DNA of 64,000 nucleotides from Eubacteriales bacterium (GTDB taxonomy: Bacteria > Bacillota > Clostridia > Oscillospirales > CAG-272). The notes beneath the pieces were generated by a model. That model did no database searches. It saw nothing but the letters and a program-made list of their open reading frames with translations, and was not told the origin of the DNA. The stretch spans positions 15-64,014 of the forward strand of contig JBGVKV010000071.1 of the NCBI GenBank assembly GCA_045123975.1, read 5' to 3'. Shown here in pieces: positions 22,619-63,805 of the stretch (its first letter is position 1; every line of letters starts with the position of its first letter). The translations under genes and the position numbers were made by a program.

Positions 22619-23389
22619 ATGACACATACGGTTGTAATTGCGTTTGCAAATCAGAAAGGCGGCGTAGGAAAGACCACCTCCGCTGTGAACGTGGCGGCAT
22701 CGGTGGCACAATTGGGCAAAAAAGTTCTGCTTATCGACGCCGATCCCCAGGGAAATGCCTCCAGCGGTGTGGGAATCTCCCGAAAAGGCCTGAAAAAATC
22801 TCTGTACGGGGTTTTGAACGGCGATTATCCCGCGGCGGACGCCGTTGTGGAAACAGAATACAAAAATCTCTCCGTATTGCCCACCACCATCGATCTGGCA
22901 GGCGCGGAGTTCGATCTGATCACCCGGGAACGGCATTTTGCCGCAATGAAAGACGCAATTGAGCCTTTGAAGGGCGTGTACGACGTGATTTTCATCGACT
23001 GTCCCCCCTCCCTCGGCATGCTGACGGTGAACGCACTGTCCGCCTCGGACGGCATCGTGATCCCCATGCAGTGCGAATATTACTCCCTGGAGGGACTTTC
23101 CCAGCTGATGATGACGGTACGGCGGGTGAAAAACCAGTTCAATCCCGCCTTGGGCATTTTGGGTATTCTGATCACCATGTACGACGGACGGCTGAATCTC
23201 AGCGCGCAGGTGCTCACCGAACTGAAGAAATACTACGCCGACAAGCTGTTCCGCACCATGATTCCGCGGAACGTAAAGCTGTCCGAGGCTCCCAGCTTCG
23301 GCGCGCCGGTGTATTATCACGATAAGTACTCCCGGGGCAGTCTGGCCTACATTGACGTGGCAAAAGAGCTTCTGGACCGCATCTTCTGA
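22619..23389 (+). CDS. parA: chromosome partitioning ATPase ParA/Soj
   Basis: Deviant Walker A KGGVGKTT, DADPQGN; 256 aa. Confidence 0.9.
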   Translation: MTHTVVIAFANQKGGVGKTTSAVNVAASVAQLGKKVLLIDADPQGNASSGVGISRKGLKKSLYGVLNGDYPAADAVVETEYKNLSVLPTTIDLAGAEFDLITRERHFAAMKDAIEPLKGVYDVIFIDCPPSLGMLTVNALSASDGIVIPMQCEYYSLEGLSQLMMTVRRVKNQFNPALGILGILITMYDGRLNLSAQVLTELKKYYADKLFRTMIPRNVKLSEAPSFGAPVYYHDKYSRGSLAYIDVAKELLDRIF

Positions 23390-23405
23390 CGAGAAAGGAT
23401 ATAGT

Positions 23406-24290
23406 ATGGCAAAAAAAATGAGTTTGGGCCGAGGACTGGACAGTATTTTCGGCGATAATGAGATAGAAACCAAGGATTCCCAGGTACAAAAGGTACGGAT
23501 CGGCATGATCGAGCCCAAGGCGGATCAGCCCCGACAGCATTTCGATAACGAGGCACTCTCCCAGTTGGCGGATTCCATCGCCATCCACGGCGTGCTCCAG
23601 CCCATTCTGGTGCGTCCGTCCTCCCGCGCGGGATTTTATCAGATCATCGCCGGTGAGCGCCGTTGGCGCGCTTCCAAGCTGGCGGGACTTTCCGAGGTGC
23701 CCGTGATCGTGGTGGATGCGGATGAACTGCAGACCGCCCAGTTCGCGCTGATCGAGAATCTGCAGAGAGAAGATCTGGACGCATGGGAAGAAGGCGCGGC
23801 CTACAGCCGCCTGATGCGGGATTTCGGCCTGACGCAGGAGGAAGTATCCGTGAAGTTGGGCAAGAGCCGCAGTGCGGTAGCCAATTCTCTCCGTCTGCTG
23901 GATCTGCCGGAGGAAGTGGTGGAACTGCTTCGCTCCAAGCAGCTGAGTGCCGGTCACTGCCGCGCTCTGTTGGGACTCAGGGATAAAGAACAGATGTTCG
24001 CACTGGCCAATCGGGCGGTGCTGCGGAATCTCTCCGTGAGAGAGGTGGAGGCTGCCGTCAAGGCCGCCAACCGGACCGCCACCGTGCTGCACACCCCGCC
24101 GGAGATCGACTCGGGCGTACACGTAGACTATCTGGCAGAGCTGGAAAAGCGGGCTACGTCCATGATCGGCCGCCGGGTAGCTATCCAGTCCGGCAAACGG
24201 AAGAAGATCCTGACGGTGGAATACCAGACCAACGAGGATCTGGAGGAGCTTCTCGTGAAGCTCTGCGGTAACGAGATCATCGAGCAGTAA
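23406..24290 (+). CDS. parB: chromosome partitioning protein ParB/Spo0J
   Basis: Trimmed to the ATG at 23406. MAKKMSLGRGLDSIFG, QPRQHF, IAGERRWRASKLAG; 294 aa. Confidence 0.9.
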   Translation: MAKKMSLGRGLDSIFGDNEIETKDSQVQKVRIGMIEPKADQPRQHFDNEALSQLADSIAIHGVLQPILVRPSSRAGFYQIIAGERRWRASKLAGLSEVPVIVVDADELQTAQFALIENLQREDLDAWEEGAAYSRLMRDFGLTQEEVSVKLGKSRSAVANSLRLLDLPEEVVELLRSKQLSAGHCRALLGLRDKEQMFALANRAVLRNLSVREVEAAVKAANRTATVLHTPPEIDSGVHVDYLAELEKRATSMIGRRVAIQSGKRKKILTVEYQTNEDLEELLVKLCGNEIIEQ

Positions 24291-24882: not shown

Positions 24883-25701
24883 ATGAACAGAACGTATAGA
24901 AAGCATCGCAGCACCGCGTCCATTCTCCTCACCATCACCGCCATCGCTTTGGCGGTACTGATCGCGGCGGCCGCCTTCATCTATTTTGCGGGCATCCGCT
25001 ATATCCGCTACAACTATGAGGACGGATACGTAAAATATTTCGGTCGGGTGGATGACAACGGCGATCCCCTCTCCGGTGCGCTGGTATACGAATCCGGCGT
25101 GCGGGCCAAGGTGAATCTGGAAAAGACGGAGATCTCCTACTCCAACGGCGATCTGTACGAGGGTCCCCTGAAGAATCTGCGCCGTCACGGCTATGGCCGT
25201 CTGATCTACAAAAACGGCGACGTATACGAGGGCGAATTTGCGGAGGATAAAATTTCCGGCACGGGCAAATACTCCTTCGTCAGCGGCGACGTGTACGAAG
25301 GCCAGTTCAAAAACGGACTGATGGACGGCACGGGCACTTATACCTGGCAGAACGGAAGCGTCTACACCGGCGGATTCCGTGAGGGAAAGAAGGACGGCGA
25401 AGGCACTTTCGTGTGGAACTACGGCGATCGGTACGAGGGAAGCTACCGTATGGATCAGAAATCCGGTTACGGCGTGTACACCTGGAAAAACGGCGACACC
25501 TACGCGGGTGAGTACGCGGAGGATGTCCGCAGCGGTCAGGGTGTGTACACCTGGGCCAACGGGGAAAAGTACGAGGGCTCCTTCAAGAACAACGTCATGT
25601 GGGGTGAGGGCACCTATACATGGCCCTCCGGCCGTGTGTACACGGGATATTTTGAAAACGGCGTCATCGTCCGCGTTGTGGGCGAGGAAGATACCGAATA
25701 A
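24883..25701 (+). CDS. membrane-anchored MORN-repeat protein
   Basis: AGGAGG RBS. An N-terminal TM helix is followed by 8 or more tandem ~23-aa MORN units (Y.G....G...G.G.Y....G). Confidence 0.8.
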   Translation: MNRTYRKHRSTASILLTITAIALAVLIAAAAFIYFAGIRYIRYNYEDGYVKYFGRVDDNGDPLSGALVYESGVRAKVNLEKTEISYSNGDLYEGPLKNLRRHGYGRLIYKNGDVYEGEFAEDKISGTGKYSFVSGDVYEGQFKNGLMDGTGTYTWQNGSVYTGGFREGKKDGEGTFVWNYGDRYEGSYRMDQKSGYGVYTWKNGDTYAGEYAEDVRSGQGVYTWANGEKYEGSFKNNVMWGEGTYTWPSGRVYTGYFENGVIVRVVGEEDTE

Positions 25702-25710
25702 ACAAAGAAA

Positions 25711-25744
25711 AACACCGCAGGAATGGCGGGTTCTCATAAGGAAG
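25711..25744 (+). repeat. left inverted arm of the AT-rich cassette
   Basis: AACACCGCAGGAATGGCGGGTTCTCATAAGGAAG compared with the reverse complement of 26733-26767, AACACCGCAGGATTAGGCTCGTTCTCATAAGGATG. Confidence 0.75.
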
Positions 25745-25758
25745 TTTGATATTGTTTT

Positions 25759-25806
25759 GTAGGGGCGTTCATCGAACGCCCGCGGGCGACCAATGGTCGC
25801 CCCTAC
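25759..25806. repeat. GTAG-type REP doublet (head-to-head)
   Basis: GTAGGGGCGTTCATCGAACGCCC (25759-25781, +) and GGGCGACCAATGGTCGCCCCTAC (25784-25806, -). Confidence 0.85.
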
Positions 25807-25841
25807 GGATAAACAAATCTGATCCGCAGAAAACAAAGATT

Positions 25842-25875
25842 AACCCCGACAGATTTTTGAATGTCTGTCGGGGTT
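25842..25875 (-). terminator. cassette terminator hairpin, CCCCGACAGA family
   Basis: AACCCCGACAGA-loop-TCTGTCGGGGTT, T-rich downstream on the minus strand. The same stem is present at 54885 and 63777. Confidence 0.65.
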
Positions 25876-25880
25876 AAGTA

Positions 25881-26378
25881 TTAATTCAATGAAATGCCCT
25901 CTGCATTGATTCGAATTGAGTAAAACAAATTAAAAACTTCCTCTTTAGGATTTAACGTGCGATACATATTTATCAATCTTCTTTTTCCAACTCTTCGATC
26001 AAGTATGGCGAAAATACGAACAATCATGTTTTCACTGTTCATACTTTCCTCAATGCTTTGATTGTCAAATTCTTCAAAAGCTTGATAGAAGGTATGCGGA
26101 CTGAATATGCCTAATTTTAGTGCTGTATCGTCCATATATGCGTAATTTTCTGTCATTCGCTTTTCGTATGTTTCATTATGTGGAAATAAGTGAGCTTTGC
26201 TCCAGTTGTTCCAGTAGCAACCGCTGATCAATTCTTTGCCATCTAACCGTATGGATGCTCTGCCGTGATGGTCAGGACTTTTGCTGTAAGAAGTGCAATA
26301 ATACTGAATATGTCCTCGTAATGATTCTGCAAGATACTCGTTTTCAAGTTTATGCCTAATACCGCTCCAAGTTGACAT
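25881..26378 (-). CDS. hypothetical protein (AT-rich cassette cargo)
   Basis: Start is the ATG at 26378 (GGAGG 6 nt upstream), 165 aa. GC is far below the flanks. The tail ...IFAILDRRVGKRRLINMY recalls a widespread uncharacterised family, but that is memory only. Confidence 0.6.
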   Translation of the reverse strand: MSTWSGIRHKLENEYLAESLRGHIQYYCTSYSKSPDHHGRASIRLDGKELISGCYWNNWSKAHLFPHNETYEKRMTENYAYMDDTALKLGIFSPHTFYQAFEEFDNQSIEESMNSENMIVRIFAILDRRVGKRRLINMYRTLNPKEEVFNLFYSIRINAEGISLN

Positions 26379-26395
26379 AGTCATCCTCCTGTTCT

Positions 26396-26425
26396 ATTTA
26401 TCGCCAGTTTCGCCTTTGTATTACA
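26396..26425 (-). other. conserved leader block shared with the cassette at 55263-55292
   Basis: ATTTATCGCCAGTTTCGCCTTTGTATTACA versus ATTTATCGCCGGTTTCGACTTTGTATCACA (27/30 identical), in both cases just 5' of the cargo ORF. Confidence 0.7.
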
Positions 26426-26473
26426 AAGGTACAGGGCTAAGCCCATACCCCTATTGTTGAGCGCATCCAAAGG

Positions 26474-26591
26474 CTCCCTTGTGTAAAGGGAGCTGTCACC
26501 GCAGGTGACTGAGGGATTGTGTTTCGTTGCTCTTTGTTTTTACAATCCCTCCGCCTCACATTCGTTCGGCACCTCCCTTTACACAAGGGAG
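26474..26591. repeat. hairpin-rich 118-bp insert bounded by exact 19-bp inverted repeats
   Basis: CTCCCTTGTGTAAAGGGAG (26474-26492) is the exact reverse complement of CTCCCTTTACACAAGGGAG (26573-26591). Internal hairpins are GTCACC-GCA-GGTGAC and GAGGGATTGT..ACAATCCCTC. The insert is absent from the homologous leader at 55293-55307. Confidence 0.7.
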
Positions 26592-26608
26592 GTTTTTTCG
26601 TTAGTCCC

Positions 26609-26617
26609 ATTATAACA
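26609..26617 (-). promoter_or_regulatory. extended -10 (TGTTATAAT) of cassette promoter
   Basis: The minus strand reads TGTTATAAT. The same 9-mer sits at the equivalent position of the second cassette (55308-55316). Confidence 0.45.
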
Positions 26618-26621
26618 TAAA

Positions 26622-26649
26622 TCGGCAGAGAAAAAAATATCTCTGCCGA
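26622..26649 (+). terminator. boundary hairpin upstream of cassette promoter
   Basis: TCGGCAGAG-AAAAAAATAT-CTCTGCCGA. The counterpart at 55322-55342 is CCGCAGA-AAATCAA-TCTGCGG. Confidence 0.3.
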
Positions 26650-26658
26650 AATCTGTTT

Positions 26659-26727
26659 GTAGGGGCGACCATTGGTCGCCCGTTTTGGTTTTGCGGTTAT
26701 TTGCGGGCGATCAATGATCGCCCCTAC
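26659..26727. repeat. GTAG-type REP doublet (head-to-head, 23-nt spacer)
   Basis: GTAGGGGCGACCATTGGTCGCCC (26659-26681, +) and GGGCGATCAATGATCGCCCCTAC (26705-26727, -). Confidence 0.85.
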
Positions 26728-26732
26728 GATAA

Positions 26733-26767
26733 CATCCTTATGAGAACGAGCCTAATCCTGCGGTGTT
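26733..26767 (-). repeat. right inverted arm of the AT-rich cassette
   Basis: See 25711-25744. Ends 16 bp from the RAYT stop codon. Confidence 0.75.
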
Positions 26768-26782
26768 TTGTTGTGTGGCGGC

Positions 26783-27283
26783 TCATTCTTCGCTGTACAA
26801 CTCGTCGTATTGCCAGCGAACAGGATTTTCACAGATATATCTTACGTGTTTTTCGTAATCCTCCCGATCACGGATAACGTGATCGTAAAAGGATTTTTGC
26901 CAAATGGATTTGCCAATTTGCTTTGAAACGTATCCTTTCAGTTGTTGTACAACCCGTGACACGGTAGGGGCGACCATTGGTCGCCCGTCCTCATCGGCAC
27001 AAACTCTCAACAACAGGTGTATGTGATTGGGCATAATCACATACCAATCCGCCATGAATGCAGGGTATGTAGATGAAATGTTTTGGATTGCCTTGCTTAC
27101 GATTTCACCGCCAGAGGATAATTCTATATTTTCCGGGCGATCAATGATCGCCCCTACATTTTCCCAAAAATAATTTCGCCTGTCCTCGGTACATATTGTA
27201 ATAAAATACGCTCCACAGGAGGAGTAATCATACGTATCTAAACGATTCTTTTTTCTTTTTGGAAATTCGTTTTCCTTTTTCAC
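26783..27283 (-). CDS. REP-associated tyrosine transposase (RAYT; IS200/IS605 Y1 family)
   Basis: GTG start (AAGAGG RBS), 166 aa. HUH motif MPNHIHLLL and the C-terminal WQKSFYDHVIRD...Y..NP Tyr region. AT-rich except for two embedded GC-rich palindromes. Confidence 0.75.
   Translation of the reverse strand: MKKENEFPKRKKNRLDTYDYSSCGAYFITICTEDRRNYFWENVGAIIDRPENIELSSGGEIVSKAIQNISSTYPAFMADWYVIMPNHIHLLLRVCADEDGRPMVAPTVSRVVQQLKGYVSKQIGKSIWQKSFYDHVIRDREDYEKHVRYICENPVRWQYDELYSEE
26964..26986 (+). repeat. REP copy inside the RAYT ORF
   Basis: GTAGGGGCGACCATTGGTCGCCC, 23/23 identical to 26659-26681. Read on the gene strand it encodes DGRPMVAPT. Confidence 0.85.
27135..27157 (-). repeat. REP copy inside the RAYT ORF
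   Basis: GGGCGATCAATGATCGCCCCTAC, 23/23 identical to 26705-26727. On the gene strand GTA GGG GCG ATC ATT GAT CGC CCG encodes VGAIIDRP. Confidence 0.85.
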
Positions 27284-27342
27284 TGCGTACCTCTTATTAC
27301 AAAATCGGCAGGGGATTTCTCCCCTGCCGGAATGTGTGTATT

Positions 27343-29286
27343 TTATCTCTTCTTCGTAGCGATCTCCATAAGGGCCTTGGCCATGAAGTCTTCCACCTTC
27401 ATGACACCGCCGTCTTCCTCTTTACGGGCACGGACAGCCACGGTGCCGTCGGTCTTTTCCTTCTCACCCACTACCAGCATGTAGGGGATCTTGTCCAGCT
27501 GTGCCTCGCGGATGCGGTACTTCAGAGTCTCGTTGCGATCATCCAGCTTGGCGCGGATGCCGGCAGCCTTCAGCTTCTCGGTAACCTCTGCGGCGTAGGG
27601 CGCGAAATCCTCGGCCAGCGGGATTACCACGGCCTGGGTATCGGCCAGCCACAAGGGGAACGCACCGGCATACTTCTCGGTCAGCAGCGCCAGCGTACGC
27701 TCGTAGCAGCCCAGGGAGGTGCGGTGAATGATATAAGGCAGCTTCTGCTGATTGTCCCGGTCGGTGTAGTACATACCGAACTTGGCGGCCAGAAGCATAT
27801 CGATCTGGATGGTAACGATGGTGTCTTCCTTACCGAATACGTTCTTGCACTGGATATCCAGCTTGGGACCGTAGAAGGCGGCCTCGTCGATACCGATCTT
27901 GTACTCCAGACCCAGATTGTCCAGAATCTTCTTCATGACGCTCTGCGCCTCTTCCCACTGCTCGGCGGTACCCTCGTACTTATCGGTACGCTTGGGATCC
28001 CACTGGGAGAAGCGGAAGGTGCAGTCCTCCAAGAGGCCCACGGTATCCAGAACGTGCTTGGCCAGCTCCAGGCATCCACGGAATTCTTCCTCCAGCTGAT
28101 CGGGGCGGAGCACCAGATGACCTTCGGAGATGGTGAACTGTCTTACACGGATCAGACCGTGCATCTCACCGGAATCCTCGTTGCGGAACAGAGTAGAAGT
28201 CTCACCCAAACGCATGGGCAATTCACGGTAGGAGCGTTTCTTATTCAGATATACCTGATACTGGAAGGGGCAGGTCATGGGACGGAGGGCGAAGCACTCT
28301 TTCGTCTCATCGTGGGGATCGCCCAGGATGAACATGCCGTCCAGATAGTGATCCCAGTGACCGGAAATCTTGTACAGCTCACGCTTCGCCATCAGCGGCG
28401 TCTTGGTGAGCAGATAGCCCCGCTTTTCTTCCTCGTCCTCGATCCACCGCTGCAAACGCTGGATCAGGCGGGCACCCTTGGGCAAAAGGATGGGCAGACC
28501 CTGGCCGATCTCGTCCACGGTGGTGAACAATTCCAGCTCACGGCCGATCTTGTTGTGGTCGCGCTTGCGGGCCTCCTCGCGGGCGGCCAAAAAGTCGTTC
28601 ATCTCCGTCTTGGAGGGGAACGCGGTGCCGTATACTCTCTGCAGCATCTTGTTGTCGGACTTGCCTTCCCAGTACGCGCCGGTGCAGGAGGTCAGCTTCA
28701 GTGCCTTTACGGCGCCGGTGGCAAACAGATGGGGGCCGGCACACAGGTCCACGAAATCACCCATCTTATAGAAGGAGATCTCCTCGCCCTCGGGAACGCG
28801 GTCGATGAGGAGCACCTTATAGGGCTCGCCCTTCTCCTCCATCAGCTTCTTTGCTTCGTCGCGGGGAAGGGTGAACCGCTCCAGCTTCTGATTTTCCTTG
28901 ACGATCTTCTTCATCTCCGCCTCGATCTGGTCGAGGATCTCGGGGGTGAAGGACACCTCGGAATCGAAATCGTAGTAGAATCCGTCGTCAATGGCGGGAC
29001 CGATGGTCAACTTGGCCTCGGGGTACAGTCTCTTTACAGCCTCGGCCAGAATGTGGGAGGCGGTGTGACGGAAGGTGCGGCGGGCACCGTCGTCATCGGG
29101 ATCGGCGAAGGTGAGCAGCTTTACGTCGCAGTCGGCCTGGGGCACGTAGGTCATGTCCACCAGCTCGCCGTTCACACGGGCGCAGAGGATCTCACGGGAG
29201 ATAATGCCGGCGCCGGCAGCGGCGTCGTATACGGATACGGGGGATTCGGCGACAAATTCTTCGCCGGTGGAGAAACGGTAGATCAT
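27343..29286 (-). CDS. thrS: threonine--tRNA ligase
   Basis: Trimmed to the ATG at 29286 (GGAGG RBS), 647 aa. TGS N-terminus, HTASHILAEA, class II core. Confidence 0.9.
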   Translation of the reverse strand: MIYRFSTGEEFVAESPVSVYDAAAGAGIISREILCARVNGELVDMTYVPQADCDVKLLTFADPDDDGARRTFRHTASHILAEAVKRLYPEAKLTIGPAIDDGFYYDFDSEVSFTPEILDQIEAEMKKIVKENQKLERFTLPRDEAKKLMEEKGEPYKVLLIDRVPEGEEISFYKMGDFVDLCAGPHLFATGAVKALKLTSCTGAYWEGKSDNKMLQRVYGTAFPSKTEMNDFLAAREEARKRDHNKIGRELELFTTVDEIGQGLPILLPKGARLIQRLQRWIEDEEEKRGYLLTKTPLMAKRELYKISGHWDHYLDGMFILGDPHDETKECFALRPMTCPFQYQVYLNKKRSYRELPMRLGETSTLFRNEDSGEMHGLIRVRQFTISEGHLVLRPDQLEEEFRGCLELAKHVLDTVGLLEDCTFRFSQWDPKRTDKYEGTAEQWEEAQSVMKKILDNLGLEYKIGIDEAAFYGPKLDIQCKNVFGKEDTIVTIQIDMLLAAKFGMYYTDRDNQQKLPYIIHRTSLGCYERTLALLTEKYAGAFPLWLADTQAVVIPLAEDFAPYAAEVTEKLKAAGIRAKLDDRNETLKYRIREAQLDKIPYMLVVGEKEKTDGTVAVRARKEEDGGVMKVEDFMAKALMEIATKKR

Positions 29287-32445: not shown

Positions 32446-32699
32446 GTATGGCGGGGGCTTGCTCCCGCCGCAACGTGAGGTTTTTGATTTACTTAGCGGA
32501 CGACCGCGCGAGTTCGCGAAACGAACTCGAGTCGCCCCTACCGGGAATGCGACTTCGGCGCATCGAGTTGGTGAACCAACTCGGAACGTCGCCCATAGCC
32601 TTCCCCAGCGGGGGAAGGTGGTATCCGCAAGGATACCGGATGAGGTGTTTCGTGCGGCTTTGGATTCCAAAAAACGGGAGGAGCAAGCCCCTCCCCTAC
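32446..32699. repeat. cluster of six palindromic units (BIME-like) between convergent spoIIE and cinA
   Basis: Units at 32446-32469 (+), 32497-32541 (-), 32549-32598 (-), 32599-32618, 32620-32637 and 32675-32699 (-). The outer two belong to the GTA(G/T)GG-GGGGCTTGCTCC family. Confidence 0.8.
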
Positions 32700-32720: not shown

Positions 32721-33245
32721 TTATCTTGTAGGGGGCGGGACTTGGCAAAGCCAATGTCCACCTACCGCTCCCAACACCAATTCCAGGGCGTAGGCTGCGG
32801 CCATGCCGCAGATCTCCTCCCTCTCGGCTGTGGGATCAAACTGCATCCGCACGGAGGTCACTTCCCCCGAATTCCGCAAAGCAAGGCCGAAGCACACCGT
32901 GCCCACAGGGCACTCGGCACTGCCGCCGCCGGGGCCGGCCACGCCTGTTGCGGACACAGCCACGTCTGCTTCGGTGATGCGAAGGACACCGGACGCCATC
33001 TCCCGGGCGGTCTGCTCGGACACGGCACCGTACTTTTCCAACGTGTCCGCCTTTACGCCCAAGGCAGACTGCTTCGTTTCGCAGGAATAGGACACCATGG
33101 ATCCGCTGAACACGTCCGACGCGCCGGGCACGGCGGTGATCCGCTGGGCGATGCGGCCGCCGGTGCAGCTTTCCGCCGCGGCCATTCTCCATCCCCTTTT
33201 CCGCAGTGCGTCAATGAGTTCCTGTGCCATGTTCTTTTCGTCCAT
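32721..33245 (-). CDS. CinA-family nicotinamide-nucleotide amidohydrolase (PncC domain)
   Basis: AAAESCTGGRIAQRI, VSYSCETK, ATGVAGPGGG; 174 aa; GGAGG RBS. Confidence 0.8.
   Translation of the reverse strand: MDEKNMAQELIDALRKRGWRMAAAESCTGGRIAQRITAVPGASDVFSGSMVSYSCETKQSALGVKADTLEKYGAVSEQTAREMASGVLRITEADVAVSATGVAGPGGGSAECPVGTVCFGLALRNSGEVTSVRMQFDPTAEREEICGMAAAYALELVLGAVGGHWLCQVPPPTR
32728..32765 (-). repeat. REP-like nested palindrome forming the last 13 codons of cinA/pncC
   Basis: The gene strand reads GTAGGTGGAC-ATTGGCTTTGCCAA-GTCCCGCCCCCTAC and encodes VGGHWLCQVPPPT. Confidence 0.6.
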
Positions 33246-33402: not shown

Positions 33403-33537
33403 GTAGGGGAGGGGCTTGCTCCTCCCGCTATTATGGATTACTGAAATTTCGCACCGGAAGTCTATACCCACGCTGTATCTTCCGCCGTTCCGTTTGTATG
33501 AACCATTTACCTCGGGAGGAGCAAGCCCCTCCCCTAC
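33403..33537. repeat. REPIN-like inverted REP pair in the traX leader
   Basis: GTAGGGGAGGGGCTTGCTCCTCCCG (33403-33427, +) and its exact reverse complement (33513-33537), separated by 85 nt. Confidence 0.85.
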
Positions 33538-35094: not shown

Positions 35095-35248
35095 AAAAGG
35101 GGAGACCGCTCCGTAGGTCTCCCCTTTTCATCCCCACATGGGCTCGGGGAGATCCCCGAGACCCCCAGATCGACGAACAGCAAAACGGGCGAGCCAGCAT
35201 AGACGCGTTCGTTTTTGAACGCACTCCTGCGGAGTGCGAGGGATAGCG
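35095..35248 (-). repeat. structured ~155-nt unit, copy A (inverted relative to copy B)
   Basis: Its reverse complement aligns along its whole length with 35467-35625. Shared features are a GCACTCC/GGAGTGC hairpin, CTCGGGG..CCCCGAG hairpin, CCCATG.GGGGAT and a terminal GGGGAGACC..GGTCTCCCC hairpin + TTTT. Confidence 0.7.
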
Positions 35249-35466: not shown

Positions 35467-35625
35467 CGTCTACCCTTTGCGCATCGAAGATGCGCATTCA
35501 AAAAGCGATGGCGTTTTTGATACCTGCATCGTATCGATACACTTCGTTCCGGGGGTCTCGGGGGTGTCCCCCCGAGCCCATGAGGGGATATAAAGGGGAG
35601 ATTTGCGGGGAGCAATCTCCCCTTT
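35467..35625 (+). repeat. structured ~155-nt unit, copy B
   Basis: GCGCATC-GAA-GATGCGC, CTCGGGGG-TGT-CCCCCGAG, CCCATGAGGGGAT, GGGGAGATT..AATCTCCCC + TTTG. Stems differ from copy A by compensatory changes. Confidence 0.7.
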
Positions 35626-51658: not shown

Positions 51659-51683
51659 GTAGGGGAGGGGCTTGCTCCTCCCG
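51659..51683 (+). repeat. solo REP of the GTAGGGGAGGGGCTTGCTCCTCCCG family
   Basis: 25/25 identical to 33403-33427. Confidence 0.85.
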
Positions 51684-54884: not shown

Positions 54885-54917
54885 AACGCCGACAGACTTT
54901 AAAAATCTGTCGGCGTT
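54885..54917 (-). terminator. cassette terminator hairpin, CCGACAGA family
   Basis: AACGCCGACAGA-CTTTAAAAA-TCTGTCGGCGTT, preceded by TCCGCAGTAAACAAATAATT as at 25823-25841. Confidence 0.65.
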
Positions 54918-63770: not shown

Positions 63771-63776
63771 AAAACA

Positions 63777-63805
63777 CCCCGACAGATTTTTTAAGTCTGT
63801 CGGGG
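63777..63805 (-). terminator. cassette terminator hairpin, CCCCGACAGA family
   Basis: CCCCGACAGA-TTTTTTAAG-TCTGTCGGGG, with TGTTTTT downstream on the minus strand. Confidence 0.65.

Follow-up and report, generated by a model that had tools for sequence, protein, structure and literature searches.

RAYTs, the Y1 transposases associated with repetitive extragenic palindromic (REP) elements, are usually treated as domesticated, single-copy enzymes that spread at most short non-coding REP doublets. Transposons of the IS200/IS605 family, such as IS608 and ISDra2, are small, encode a Y1 HUH transposase, carry subterminal hairpins and insert in a specific orientation at a short sequence, and a short motif recurs at their left flank and right end. 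Classic members have no terminal inverted repeats (TIRs), place both hairpins on the same strand and do not use hairpin loops as targets. Any second gene is tnpB, and a variable passenger that has a promoter and terminator to itself is absent. The mobile insertion cassettes known as MICs, such as MIC231 of Bacillus cereus, and cargo-bearing miniature inverted-repeat transposable elements (MITEs) do carry a passenger gene, set between the ends of an autonomous element with no transposase, and are presumably mobilised in trans; MICs derive from DDE insertion sequences (IS231, of the IS4 family) and have ordinary target duplications. Bacterial class C group II introns integrate downstream of intrinsic terminators, and IS1397 and ISKpn1 insert in REP loops. 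Here we describe a 1,030-bp single-gene cassette that occupies the loop of an intrinsic terminator beside a RAYT gene, in a 64,000-nucleotide stretch of DNA (the window; positions 15 to 64,014 of contig JBGVKV010000071.1, assembly GCA_045123975.1) from a Eubacteriales bacterium. Comparison with loci from other gut Clostridia indicates that it is probably a non-autonomous transposable cassette belonging to a RAYT-linked family.

The boundaries of the insertion are defined by two relatives that lack it. A sequence-only reading of the window had proposed that an empty junction might exist between the MORN-repeat gene and thrS; the relevant junction is actually that between the RAYT and MORN genes, and an empty version was found. 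Locus L130, the one contig returned by a metagenome scan with the 25-mer adjoining the RAYT stop, carries thrS (88.6% identical to the window), RAYT (97.6%), the hairpin AACACCGCAG-GTTTC-CTGCGGTGTT and the MORN gene (88.8%) in that order, without the cassette; its BLAST alignment skips from window position 26754 to 25723, the two parts overlapping by 2 nt (TT), and collinearity holds in both flanks. In locus L009, which encodes a RAYT protein (P0001) 98% identical to that of the window and is 93.8% identical in thrS-RAYT DNA, the RAYT stop is followed by a plain terminator hairpin, GCCGCCACACAACAAAACACCGCAG-ATTTC-CTGCGGTGTTTTT, and then by a different convergent gene, and the cassette is again missing. 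As DNA, the hairpins of L009 and L130 fold with -14.5 and -16.0 kcal/mol. Assembly collapse is unlikely to account for these contigs, since the filled allele does not contain their loop sequence. The insert amounts to 1,030 bp plus one extra TT, and its removal predicts a 5-nt loop, GATTC, which has the same length as the loops observed and differs from GTTTC by one base. The segment 25724-26753 is an insertion into the loop of the intrinsic terminator common to the RAYT and MORN genes. The arms first assigned to the cassette are inverted copies, as had been claimed, but they extend too far: since the hairpins are intact at the empty sites, the outermost 10 nt on each side (25711-25720 and 26758-26767) are the halves of the host terminator stem. 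The cassette ends have the form flank-TT, then AGGCTCGTTCTCATAAGGATGTTATC and a GTAG REP, at one end, and a REP, then CTTCCTTATGAGAACCCGCCA and TT-flank, at the other. Folded as single-stranded DNA, the window junctions give one long stem in which the terminator stem runs into the paired inverted ends (-31 kcal/mol).

The modules of the window cassette follow the order TIR-REP-promoter-slot-spacer-cargo-terminator-REP-TIR when read along the minus strand, and are given here with their neighbours in window coordinates.

24883-25701, plus strand: MORN-repeat gene (PF02493, E = 8e-43).
25706-25720, no strand assigned: host intrinsic terminator half, A-run and stem AACACCGCAG; target DNA split by the insertion and not part of the element.
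25722-25723, minus strand: TT (AA on the plus strand) next to the terminator-side end; one of the two copies of a 2-nt direct repeat.
25724-26753, minus strand: inserted cassette, 1,030 bp, probably a non-autonomous family member; missing from L130 and L009.
25724-25749, minus strand: terminator-side terminal inverted repeat, 26 nt; reads inward TGGCGGG TTCTCATAAGG AAGTTTGA.
25759-25806, no strand assigned: terminator-side head-to-head GTAG REP doublet with a spacer of 0, from repeat and motif search.
25840-25877, minus strand: cargo terminator hairpin TTAACCCCGACAGA...TCTGTCGGGGTTAA, from a terminator scan; a conserved scaffold module.
25881-26384, minus strand: cargo open reading frame (ORF) for an SF0329-family protein (PF25753, E = 1.3e-47; NF049912, E = 1.2e-44).
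26392-26458, minus strand: conserved spacer or 5' untranslated region, GGGGTATGGGCTTAGCCC...TTTGTAATACAAAGGCGAAACTGGCGATAAATAG, followed by the ribosome-binding site GGAGG; from family comparison.
26469-26596, no strand assigned: nested inverted-doublet hairpin in the variable slot between promoter and spacer; 27-nt arms, 89% complementary.
26609-26617, minus strand: extended -10 promoter element TGTTATAAT, read from the sequence.
26622-26649, no strand assigned: promoter-proximal hairpin TCGGCAGAGA...TCTCTGCCGA, terminator-like on both strands; from a terminator scan.
26659-26727, no strand assigned: promoter-side head-to-head GTAG REP doublet with a 21-nt spacer, from repeat and motif search.
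26728-26753, minus strand: promoter-side terminal inverted repeat, 26 nt; sense strand AGGCTCG TTCTCATAAGG ATGTTATC.
26754-26755, minus strand: TT abutting the promoter-side end, the second direct-repeat copy; from the L130 breakpoint and the end logo.
26758-26772, no strand assigned: other half of the host terminator, CTGCGGTGTT and T-run; from empty-site comparison.
26783-27283, minus strand: resident RAYT gene, outside the cassette (NF047646, 79.1 bits, E = 3e-22).
26964-26987, no strand assigned: REP within the RAYT ORF, coding GRPMVAPT; from motif search.
27134-27157, no strand assigned: REP within the RAYT ORF in inverted orientation, coding VGAIIDRP; from motif search.

As first described, the segment between the MORN stop (25701) and the RAYT stop (26783) is low in GC and holds a single minus-strand ORF: GC content is 42.1% in the insert, 36.5% in the cargo ORF and 41.9% in the RAYT gene, against 55.6% in the window. 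Formal local alignment of the two arms bears out the claim that the ends are inverted copies of each other. Positions 25703-25839 align with the reverse complement of 26650-26775 at a score of 95, compared with 15.6 +/- 2.4 for shuffled sequences (n = 1000; z = 33), and the outer, non-REP part alone scores 51 against 11.6 +/- 2.1 (z = 19). Farther in, similarity is weak: of a proposed AAACA.ATCTG..C(C/G)GCAGA block only AAACAnAT aligns, and the remainder does not. Exact matches to the inverted-end core TTCTCATAAGG occur in the window only in the terminator-side end and at 26735-26747. Motif search recovered both head-to-head doublets at the positions proposed for them. The GTAG palindrome GTAGGGGCGAnCAnTGnTCGCCC has six sites in 64 kb (0 expected), all at the cassette/RAYT locus. 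They pair head to head as 25759/25784, 26659/26705 and 26964/27135, and the last of these pairs falls within the RAYT coding sequence. The REP at 25783-25806 is complementary at 24/24 positions to 26659-26682 and to 26964-26987, and at both ends the REP hairpins lie 5-14 nt inside the inverted-end core. The doublets do not delimit the element; it is bounded instead by the 26-nt inverted ends and TT.

These data bear on the alternative that no composite element exists and that two independent REP-doublet (REPIN or MITE) insertions happen to surround an ordinary resident gene beside a RAYT, or that the arms resemble each other by chance. REPs do cluster around RAYTs in known REPtrons (PMC3333891), and one MITE-like locus without the scaffold exists (L044). 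However, the arm alignment departs from shuffled sequence by the z value of 33 given above, the 1,030-bp segment is either there in full or missing altogether, and the same collinear architecture is found with other cargo at over 100 loci. We therefore regard independent insertion or chance similarity as refuted by the arm alignment, the empty site and the family architecture together, and its residual probability as close to nil.

The family was delineated with a pattern derived from the arm motif, TTCTCRTAAGGNNGTT-N1-20-GTAGGG, run on a species-representative genome collection. It identified at least 119 genomic stretches, all in metagenome-assembled genomes (MAGs) of Clostridia that are assigned to Oscillospiraceae, Acutalibacteraceae, 'Eubacteriales' or 'Clostridia' and come from human, ruminant and chicken guts. 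Among 2.9 million viral contigs (IMG/VR) the pattern gave a single, spurious match, and plasmid and phage collections gave weak ORF-level or fragmentary matches only, with no sign of cassettes carried there. Many matches are located at the ends of contigs, and individual MAGs contain 3-4 loci or more, which fits a dispersed repeat; given the contig-end positions, the cassettes probably break metagenome assemblies. The first sign of a family had come from homologs of the cargo module in other contexts, L008 (94% amino acid identity) and L006/L007 (82%), in which promoter hairpin, leader, ORF and terminator are kept at 79-83% DNA identity and TTCTCATAAGG with a GTAG palindrome is present on one side only.

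Wherever enough sequence is available the module order is invariant: inverted end, REP(s), hairpin, slot, spacer, ORF, terminator, REP(s), inverted end. The conserved scaffold motifs are the hairpin TCGGCAGAGA..TCTCTGCCGA with TTGTGTTATAATG, the promoter motif TCTCTGCCGATTTGTGTTATAATG, the spacer GGGTATGGGCTTTGCCC..TTTGTAATACAAAGGCGAAA, which lies upstream of the cargo in most loci containing that part of the cassette, and the terminator CCCCGACAGA..TCTGTCGGGG, which adjoins the terminator-side end in most loci. Eighteen cassettes are complete and measure 498-1361 bp between TIR cores, 17 of them 796-1361 bp; the shortest (L129, 620-1110; 498 bp) has a complete scaffold without a cargo ORF. 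Two further loci depart from the standard form. L044 (1390-1520) is a MITE-like unit of ~110 bp inside a terminator, with an inverted end, a REP doublet and a degenerate inverted end. In L030 (3600-4560) two cassettes lie head to tail, the first of them without REPs or a promoter-side end, and are joined right end-TT-left end as ...CTTCCTTATGAGAACCGGCCT-TT-AGGAGCGTTCTCATAAGG...; this junction is expected both for a circle and for insertion beside the TT of another element, and does not discriminate between the two.

Logos built from unique ends (49 promoter-side and 60 terminator-side) gave the consensus sequences TTAGGCTnnTTCTCATAAGGATGTTTAC for the former and AAAGGCTGnTTCTCATAAGGAAGTTT for the latter, and a family terminal inverted repeat of 26 nt, AGGCTSS-TTCTCATAAGG-AWGTTT. 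At one end the arrangement is flank-TT, then AGGCTSS TTCTCATAAGG ATGTTTAC..., and at the other ...AAACTTCC TTATGAGAA SSAGCCT, then TT-flank, and conservation stops sharply. The two ends are consistently asymmetric (GGATG versus GGAAG). The TT is on the same strand at both ends, with T in 46/49 and 45/49 cases at the two positions on the promoter side and in 56/60 cases at each of the two on the terminator side. The dinucleotide is therefore repeated directly and does not belong to the inverted repeat. The TT may represent a left-flank target together with the element's own right-end dinucleotide, so that duplication is ambiguous. Beyond it, only an A-run and a stem are found on one side and a stem and a T-run on the other. 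The left and right flank stems are site-specific and mutually complementary, the longest complementary run averaging 13.7 nt, compared with 6.5 (maximum 12) for flanks drawn from different cassettes. Complementary stems and a same-strand TT lead to the conclusion that the insertion sites of the family are intrinsic-terminator loops, with a single orientation relative to TT. Family membership and mobility are well supported; these and terminator-loop targeting are drawn from direct comparison of sequences.

Mobility is also indicated by the distribution of cargo modules. Modules 90-99.3% identical in DNA occur in different species-level MAGs in flanks without a BLAST match, as in the pairs L085/L108 (99.3%) and L077/L122 (94.6%). 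Together with the empty sites, identical modules in unrelated flanks imply that whole units reach new terminators. A contrasting proposal is that the scaffolds are old and fixed and that only their contents spread, by homologous recombination in a form of cassette exchange. Exchange of parts does appear to occur: the window SF0329 module is 97.9% identical to a copy in the MAG SIG657, although the slot hairpin differs, the copy has a different single REP, and its flanks are different; L084 and L103 are 90% identical across arm, promoter, RAYT and spacer and carry different cargo. Yet L130 and L009 lack the entire scaffold, inverted ends included, and have a clean 5-nt loop in its place; each site has different flanking stems; and recombination leaves the arrival of the scaffold at new terminators unexplained. 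Cassette exchange is thus contradicted as the sole explanation by the two empty sites and, in that exclusive form, is improbable, whereas as an additional process it is likely. We infer that cassette parts are also reshuffled, most simply by recombination between conserved scaffold segments.

The expectation that the same arms would be found with other cargo was borne out. Among 44 modules extending from spacer to terminator there are 41 distinct ORFs in 29 protein clusters. Pfam matches were obtained for 7 of the 28 cluster representatives outside SF0329 (three GNAT acetyltransferases, HD_3, peptidase S51, peptidase M24 and HTH_3) and Pfam gave no match for the other 21; several products resemble lipoproteins or membrane proteins. 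The window cargo probably starts at its second ATG, at 26378, giving a protein of 165 amino acids as in its homologs, of which there are 1272. It has no sequence match in the PDB, its AlphaFold model (pLDDT 90.4) has no PDB fold match at E <= 0.001, PADLOC returned no match for the cargo or the RAYT, and the literature searched, with incomplete coverage, yielded no paper mentioning the SF0329 family. Homologs at L001-L005 (77-82% amino acid identity) lie in ordinary operon-like contexts without arms, REPs or scaffold, and the SF0329 gene is therefore not always cassette-borne but also occurs as a plain chromosomal gene.

Between promoter and spacer lies a variable slot. It may be essentially empty (58-59 nt), hold a GTAG REP doublet (about a dozen loci) or a 175-256-nt inverted-doublet hairpin of the window type (about 27 loci), or contain a RAYT gene (L010, L072, L084 and L117, with 536-578 nt from promoter to spacer). 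The sequence at 26469-26596 had been taken for a leader; comparison of 46 leaders revealed a variable slot and no conserved riboregulator, and the window occupant is a nested inverted-doublet repeat. An Rfam search of 25500-27500 at E <= 1 gave sub-threshold chance matches only, and none for the slot hairpin, so that this 'leader' is not a known RNA. A sigma-70 scan, which needs a -35 element, made no call for the -10 element TGTTATAAT. The promoter-proximal hairpin probably shields the cassette from read-through. Scaffold sequence also surrounds the RAYT gene of L010: the window hairpin is 89% identical to the sequence directly 5' of that gene and the window spacer 83.6% identical to the sequence directly 3' of it, and L010 keeps promoter, spacer and terminator without the inverted ends. 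L084 is a complete element with both RAYT and cargo, 1361 bp between TIR cores, with both inverted ends and terminator flanks. With its ends intact and its own RAYT it looks autonomous, whereas the window cassette, having no transposase, is classed as non-autonomous. RAYTs also lie beside arms at L051, L057, L103, L115 and L125.

The resident RAYT of the window falls just under the NCBIfam cutoff for REP_Tyr_transpos (NF047646; 79.1 bits against 80, E = 3e-22), scores 15.3 bits with the IS200 model and reaches 20.8 against a cutoff of 23 with Pfam Y1_Tnp. Its homologs are named 'REP element-mobilizing transposase RayT' by two sources. In an alignment of 31 sequences, H87 and H89 of the HUH motif (NHIHLLL) and Y149 (YIxENP), the putative catalytic residue judging from RAYT motifs, are invariant. 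Exact look-up of the protein returned no record. The RAYT had been called the only Y1 transposase in the window, and tblastn with it indeed detected no second copy there. It occupies the same thrS-proximal position in L009 and L130, and its homologs P0110, P0057 and P0102 are each fixed in a context of their own. The cassette lies in the terminator of this resident gene; the REP doublets that lie 56 nt past the RAYT stop belong to the inserted cassette, and in the empty-site relatives L009 and L130 no extragenic REP adjoins the RAYT. Within the 64 kb, the arm REP type has no copy outside the cassette/RAYT locus.

A link between RAYT and the cassettes is provided by the REPs themselves. RAYT ORFs (window, L010, L051, L057, L072, L084, L103 and L117) contain an inverted GTAG REP pair, 132-180 nt apart and fixed in its two positions, that brackets the HUH motif. 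Both arm doublets of the window cassette match the REPs inside the resident ORF, the promoter-side doublet being identical to them at 25/25 and 27/28 positions. In the window RAYT subfamily the peptides encoded by the REPs, VGA(I/T)I(D/G)RP and GRP(M/L)VAPT, are near-invariant in the 31 sequences; other subfamilies encode VGTGVLDCP/GQSRTPVPT, VGVDVLGDP/GSPRTSTPT and VGADSISAR/RADMESAPT. Across five REP types the intragenic pair changes together as reverse complements: of the 11 genes in the comparison, 10 have complementarity at 22-26 of the 26 nt and L115 at 16/26, a covariation that argues for selection on DNA or RNA hairpins. We found no report of REPs embedded in RAYT ORFs in the literature searched, the coverage of which was incomplete. 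The two commonest arm REP types (43/136 and 62/136 arms) are the two commonest types inside RAYT ORFs. No transposase-like gene other than RAYT was seen inside or beside the arms examined and, since RAYT lies between the same two types of arm in relatives, L084 being complete and L051, L057, L072, L103, L115, L117 and L125 partial, it is the family's only candidate transposase.

Other RAYT loci show related arrangements. The P0110 RAYT (MetH-RAYT-sulfatase locus, L132-L137, six samples) has a degenerate inverted end and a promoter upstream, and downstream of it is a tandem REP array of sample-dependent length, with a gap to the next gene of 174-489 nt; this variation suggests ongoing local REP amplification. 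From their sequence context, resident RAYTs look like decayed elements. In L125 (1300-2450, reverse strand) a ~200-nt REP-bounded RAYT segment has been copied 3' of the gene, which has lost its second REP, and a REP-bounded piece of RAYT thus seems able to move or recombine alone. The resident RAYT lies ~2.5 kb from parA/parB-like genes (22619-24290) in the window, and P0102 (L140/L141) adjoins gidB and dnaN; both contexts suggest a chromosomal region close to the origin, a location that may be relevant to an enzyme dependent on single-stranded DNA.

How might such cassettes move? We propose that a RAYT acting in trans, plausibly the product of the adjacent resident gene, would cut single-stranded DNA 3' of TT at both ends, acting as a dimer on exposed REP hairpins and paired inverted ends, with the inverted ends and terminator half-stems pairing into one long stem. 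The released unit would be rejoined 3' of a TT within a terminator loop whose GC-rich hairpin resembles a REP hairpin, a landing site at which no gene would be disrupted; an excised circle would join the ends as GAGAASSAGCCT-TT-AGGCTSSTTCTC. The cassette's own hairpin, promoter and terminator would make the passenger an insulated expression unit, autonomous members would carry the RAYT-type Y1 (HUH) transposase in the slot, and recombination between conserved scaffold segments would shuffle cargo, slot content and REPs among cassettes. Strand-specific, single-strand chemistry is favoured by an orientation tied to the non-palindromic TT, by the hairpin-loop target and by the subterminal hairpins. 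In E. coli, TnpA-REP binds REP DNA in single-stranded form, cuts it on either side of the REP and requires the 5' GTAG (PMC3333891); by analogy this is compatible with the RAYT model, and is no proof of it. Catalysis of cassette movement by RAYT is itself inferred from sequence comparisons.

A number of observations weigh against such a role for RAYT, and several of them favour a rival in which a different transposase, encoded elsewhere, recognises the 26-nt ends and makes a 2-bp TT duplication, RAYT being a passenger and the REPs secondary colonists. Long inverted ends and an apparent 2-nt duplication, with TT at both ends, are atypical of IS200/IS605 Y1 transposition and also fit a cut-and-paste enzyme, and for this reason the rival is a serious one. 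The inverted-end core hardly varies and shows much stronger conservation than the REPs, whereas REPs and RAYTs diverge. Single genomes contain a mixture of REP types, often unlike that of the resident RAYT: arms share a REP type no more often within a MAG (25/71 pairs, 35%) than between MAGs (31%), figures that do not support the idea that arm REPs adapt to the resident RAYT, and in L072, L103 and L117 the arm REP is unlike the REP inside the resident RAYT. Most cassettes have no RAYT, which is found inside or beside the arms at only about 9 of about 120 loci, and some element-borne RAYTs are damaged pseudogenes, L103 and L072 by stop codons and L125 by a deletion. Palindromic repeats of unrelated type are also accommodated in the slot. 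The window RAYT, just under its NCBIfam cutoff, has no inverted ends of its own, and the REPtrons of E. coli are reported not to transpose as units (PMC3333891).

Against a different transposase stand the failure to see any other transposase-like gene in or beside the arms examined, a target that is a hairpin loop and hence a single-strand structure, and an orientation tied to the TT strand in ~93% of ends, as expected for single-strand insertion and not for a staggered cut. Moreover, where RAYT is present inside an element it is always the first gene after the element's promoter, as expected of a transposase. On balance we consider a separate enzyme unlikely, and continue to favour a non-autonomous transposable cassette of a RAYT-linked family as the probable identity of the window element. 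The proposal of a RAYT-delimited or RAYT-mobilisable cargo element is supported, with caveats: the cassette is a mobile unit and RAYTs occur within the arms of relatives; the case for RAYT catalysis is circumstantial, and the REP type of the arms is not genome-specific.

A more far-reaching interpretation, to which we would give somewhat less than an even chance, is that RAYTs of gut Clostridia are active or recently active transposases of a modular 'expression-cassette transposon', a self-insulated unit made up of promoter, one-gene slot and terminator, that inserts by single-strand chemistry into terminator loops and carries diverse accessory genes from species to species. The intragenic REP pair would then act in cis, armless resident RAYTs with REP arrays would be domesticated descendants, and the family would stand as a living intermediate that connects IS200/IS605 transposons with REP/RAYT systems. 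In this family, a defined and repeatedly transposed unit with protein-coding cargo holds RAYT genes or occurs as RAYT-less derivatives, a finding that contradicts the view of RAYTs as immobile and offers an intermediate, open to testing, that links transposons to REP systems. If RAYT is the enzyme, a direct test of whether REP/RAYT systems arose from transposons comes within reach, and the cassettes would constitute a new path by which genes flow among the uncultured Oscillospirales of the gut, with a cargo mostly of small uncharacterised proteins plus GNAT, HD, S51 and M24 enzymes. They would also exemplify a natural strategy in which insulated expression units land harmlessly in terminator loops, a point of interest to genome engineers.

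Several other repeats were recorded in the window. A second GTAG REP family, GTAGGGGAGGGGCTTGCTCCTCCC, is present at 32446-32471, 32675-32699, 33403-33427, 33513-33537 and 51659-51683, with one doublet separated by an 85-nt spacer and copies on either side of a CinA-C-like ORF (32721-33245, minus strand); REP doublets related to it fill the slot of about a dozen cassettes elsewhere. Intergenic hairpin repeats with 4-6 copies each comprise GCGGACCCTTTTTGCAAAAAGGGTCCGCACCCCCAAAAA (11517, 13964, 16246, 33575, 42854 and 44887) and CGCCACCTCCCCAAAAAGGTGGACGAAAAC (11466, 15612, 22493 and 44951). At 54889-54916 and 63776-63803, apart from all cassettes, are hairpins of the type seen in cassette terminators (CCGACAGA...TCTGTCGG), which could be ordinary terminators of the lineage or cassette remnants. 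A 56-nt inverted repeat, 77% complementary, lies at 35111-35166 and 35553-35608, its arms 386 nt apart.

In the literature searched, again with incomplete coverage, we found no description of this cassette family and nothing relevant on cargo-carrying RAYT units or on terminator-loop targeting by HUH elements. Among described systems, REPtrons and TIRtrons come nearest. The REPtron at the E. coli yafM locus (Ton-Hoang et al. 2012, PMC3333891) resembles the family in combining a RAYT-clade Y1 HUH transposase with inverted GTAG palindromes, and resident RAYTs such as those of the window and L132-L137 likewise occupy fixed chromosomal positions by REP arrays of variable length. REPtrons, however, carry no passenger and are reported not to move as a unit (PMC3333891), whereas the Clostridia cassettes have 26-nt inverted ends beyond the REPs, their own promoter and terminator and a cargo slot, are found at many unrelated sites with a RAYT-less majority, and belong to a family in which REPs also lie inside the RAYT ORF. 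In TIRtrons, or TIRYTs (Di Nocera et al. 2013, PMC3733652), a RAYT-like gene lies between long inverted repeats that form moderately abundant repeat families, as in the cassettes, but those repeats are described as unrelated to GTAG REPs, while the cassettes combine both. The description of TIRtrons includes no cargo genes, no terminator-loop targeting and no non-autonomous gene cassettes (PMC3733652), and the examples are not from Clostridia, the paper containing no mention of 'Clostrid' or 'Firmicutes'. The head-to-head GTAG doublets associated with a RAYT, and symmetric ends able to fold into a long hairpin in single-stranded DNA, recall REPINs (Bertels and Rainey 2011, PMC3116915). REPINs are ~100 bp, non-coding and present in tens to hundreds of copies (PMC3116915), and the cassette doublets are the subterminal parts of a 1-kb coding unit; being coding, 1 kb long and not abundant locally, the cassette is not a REPIN.

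Resemblance of the family to IS200/IS605 elements extends to the Y1 HUH transposase, the small size, the subterminal REP hairpins at both ends, orientation-specific insertion at TT and the recurrence of a short motif at left flank and right end. The window cassette differs from them in having 26-nt inverted ends with TT at both junctions and no Y1 transposase gene, although L084 and others carry RAYT in the slot. Like the integron gene cassettes, the family supplies a standard vehicle for single, diverse and mostly uncharacterised small ORFs, and tandems occur (L030). In contrast to integron cassettes, there is no attC or attI, no integrase was seen in the neighbourhoods examined, and the cassettes are scattered in terminators and not stacked at one platform; an integron reading was considered and rejected, given a separate promoter and terminator for each cassette, inverted ends in place of attC and scattered terminator sites. 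With class C group II introns, IS1397 and ISKpn1 the family shares the use of a GC-rich stem-loop 3' of genes as a harmless landing site, but the enzymes of those elements, a reverse transcriptase and DDE transposases, are unrelated to RAYT and no cargo scaffold is found there. MICs provide a functional parallel in that the window cassette keeps the inverted ends, promoter, spacer and terminator of L084 and holds the SF0329 gene as a passenger, with no transposase. Unlike MICs, the cassette family is linked to a Y1 RAYT, uses a standard expression scaffold and targets terminator loops. In functional terms the window element can be classed as a mobile insertion cassette whose parent is Y1-linked and, by analogy with MICs, would be mobilised in trans.

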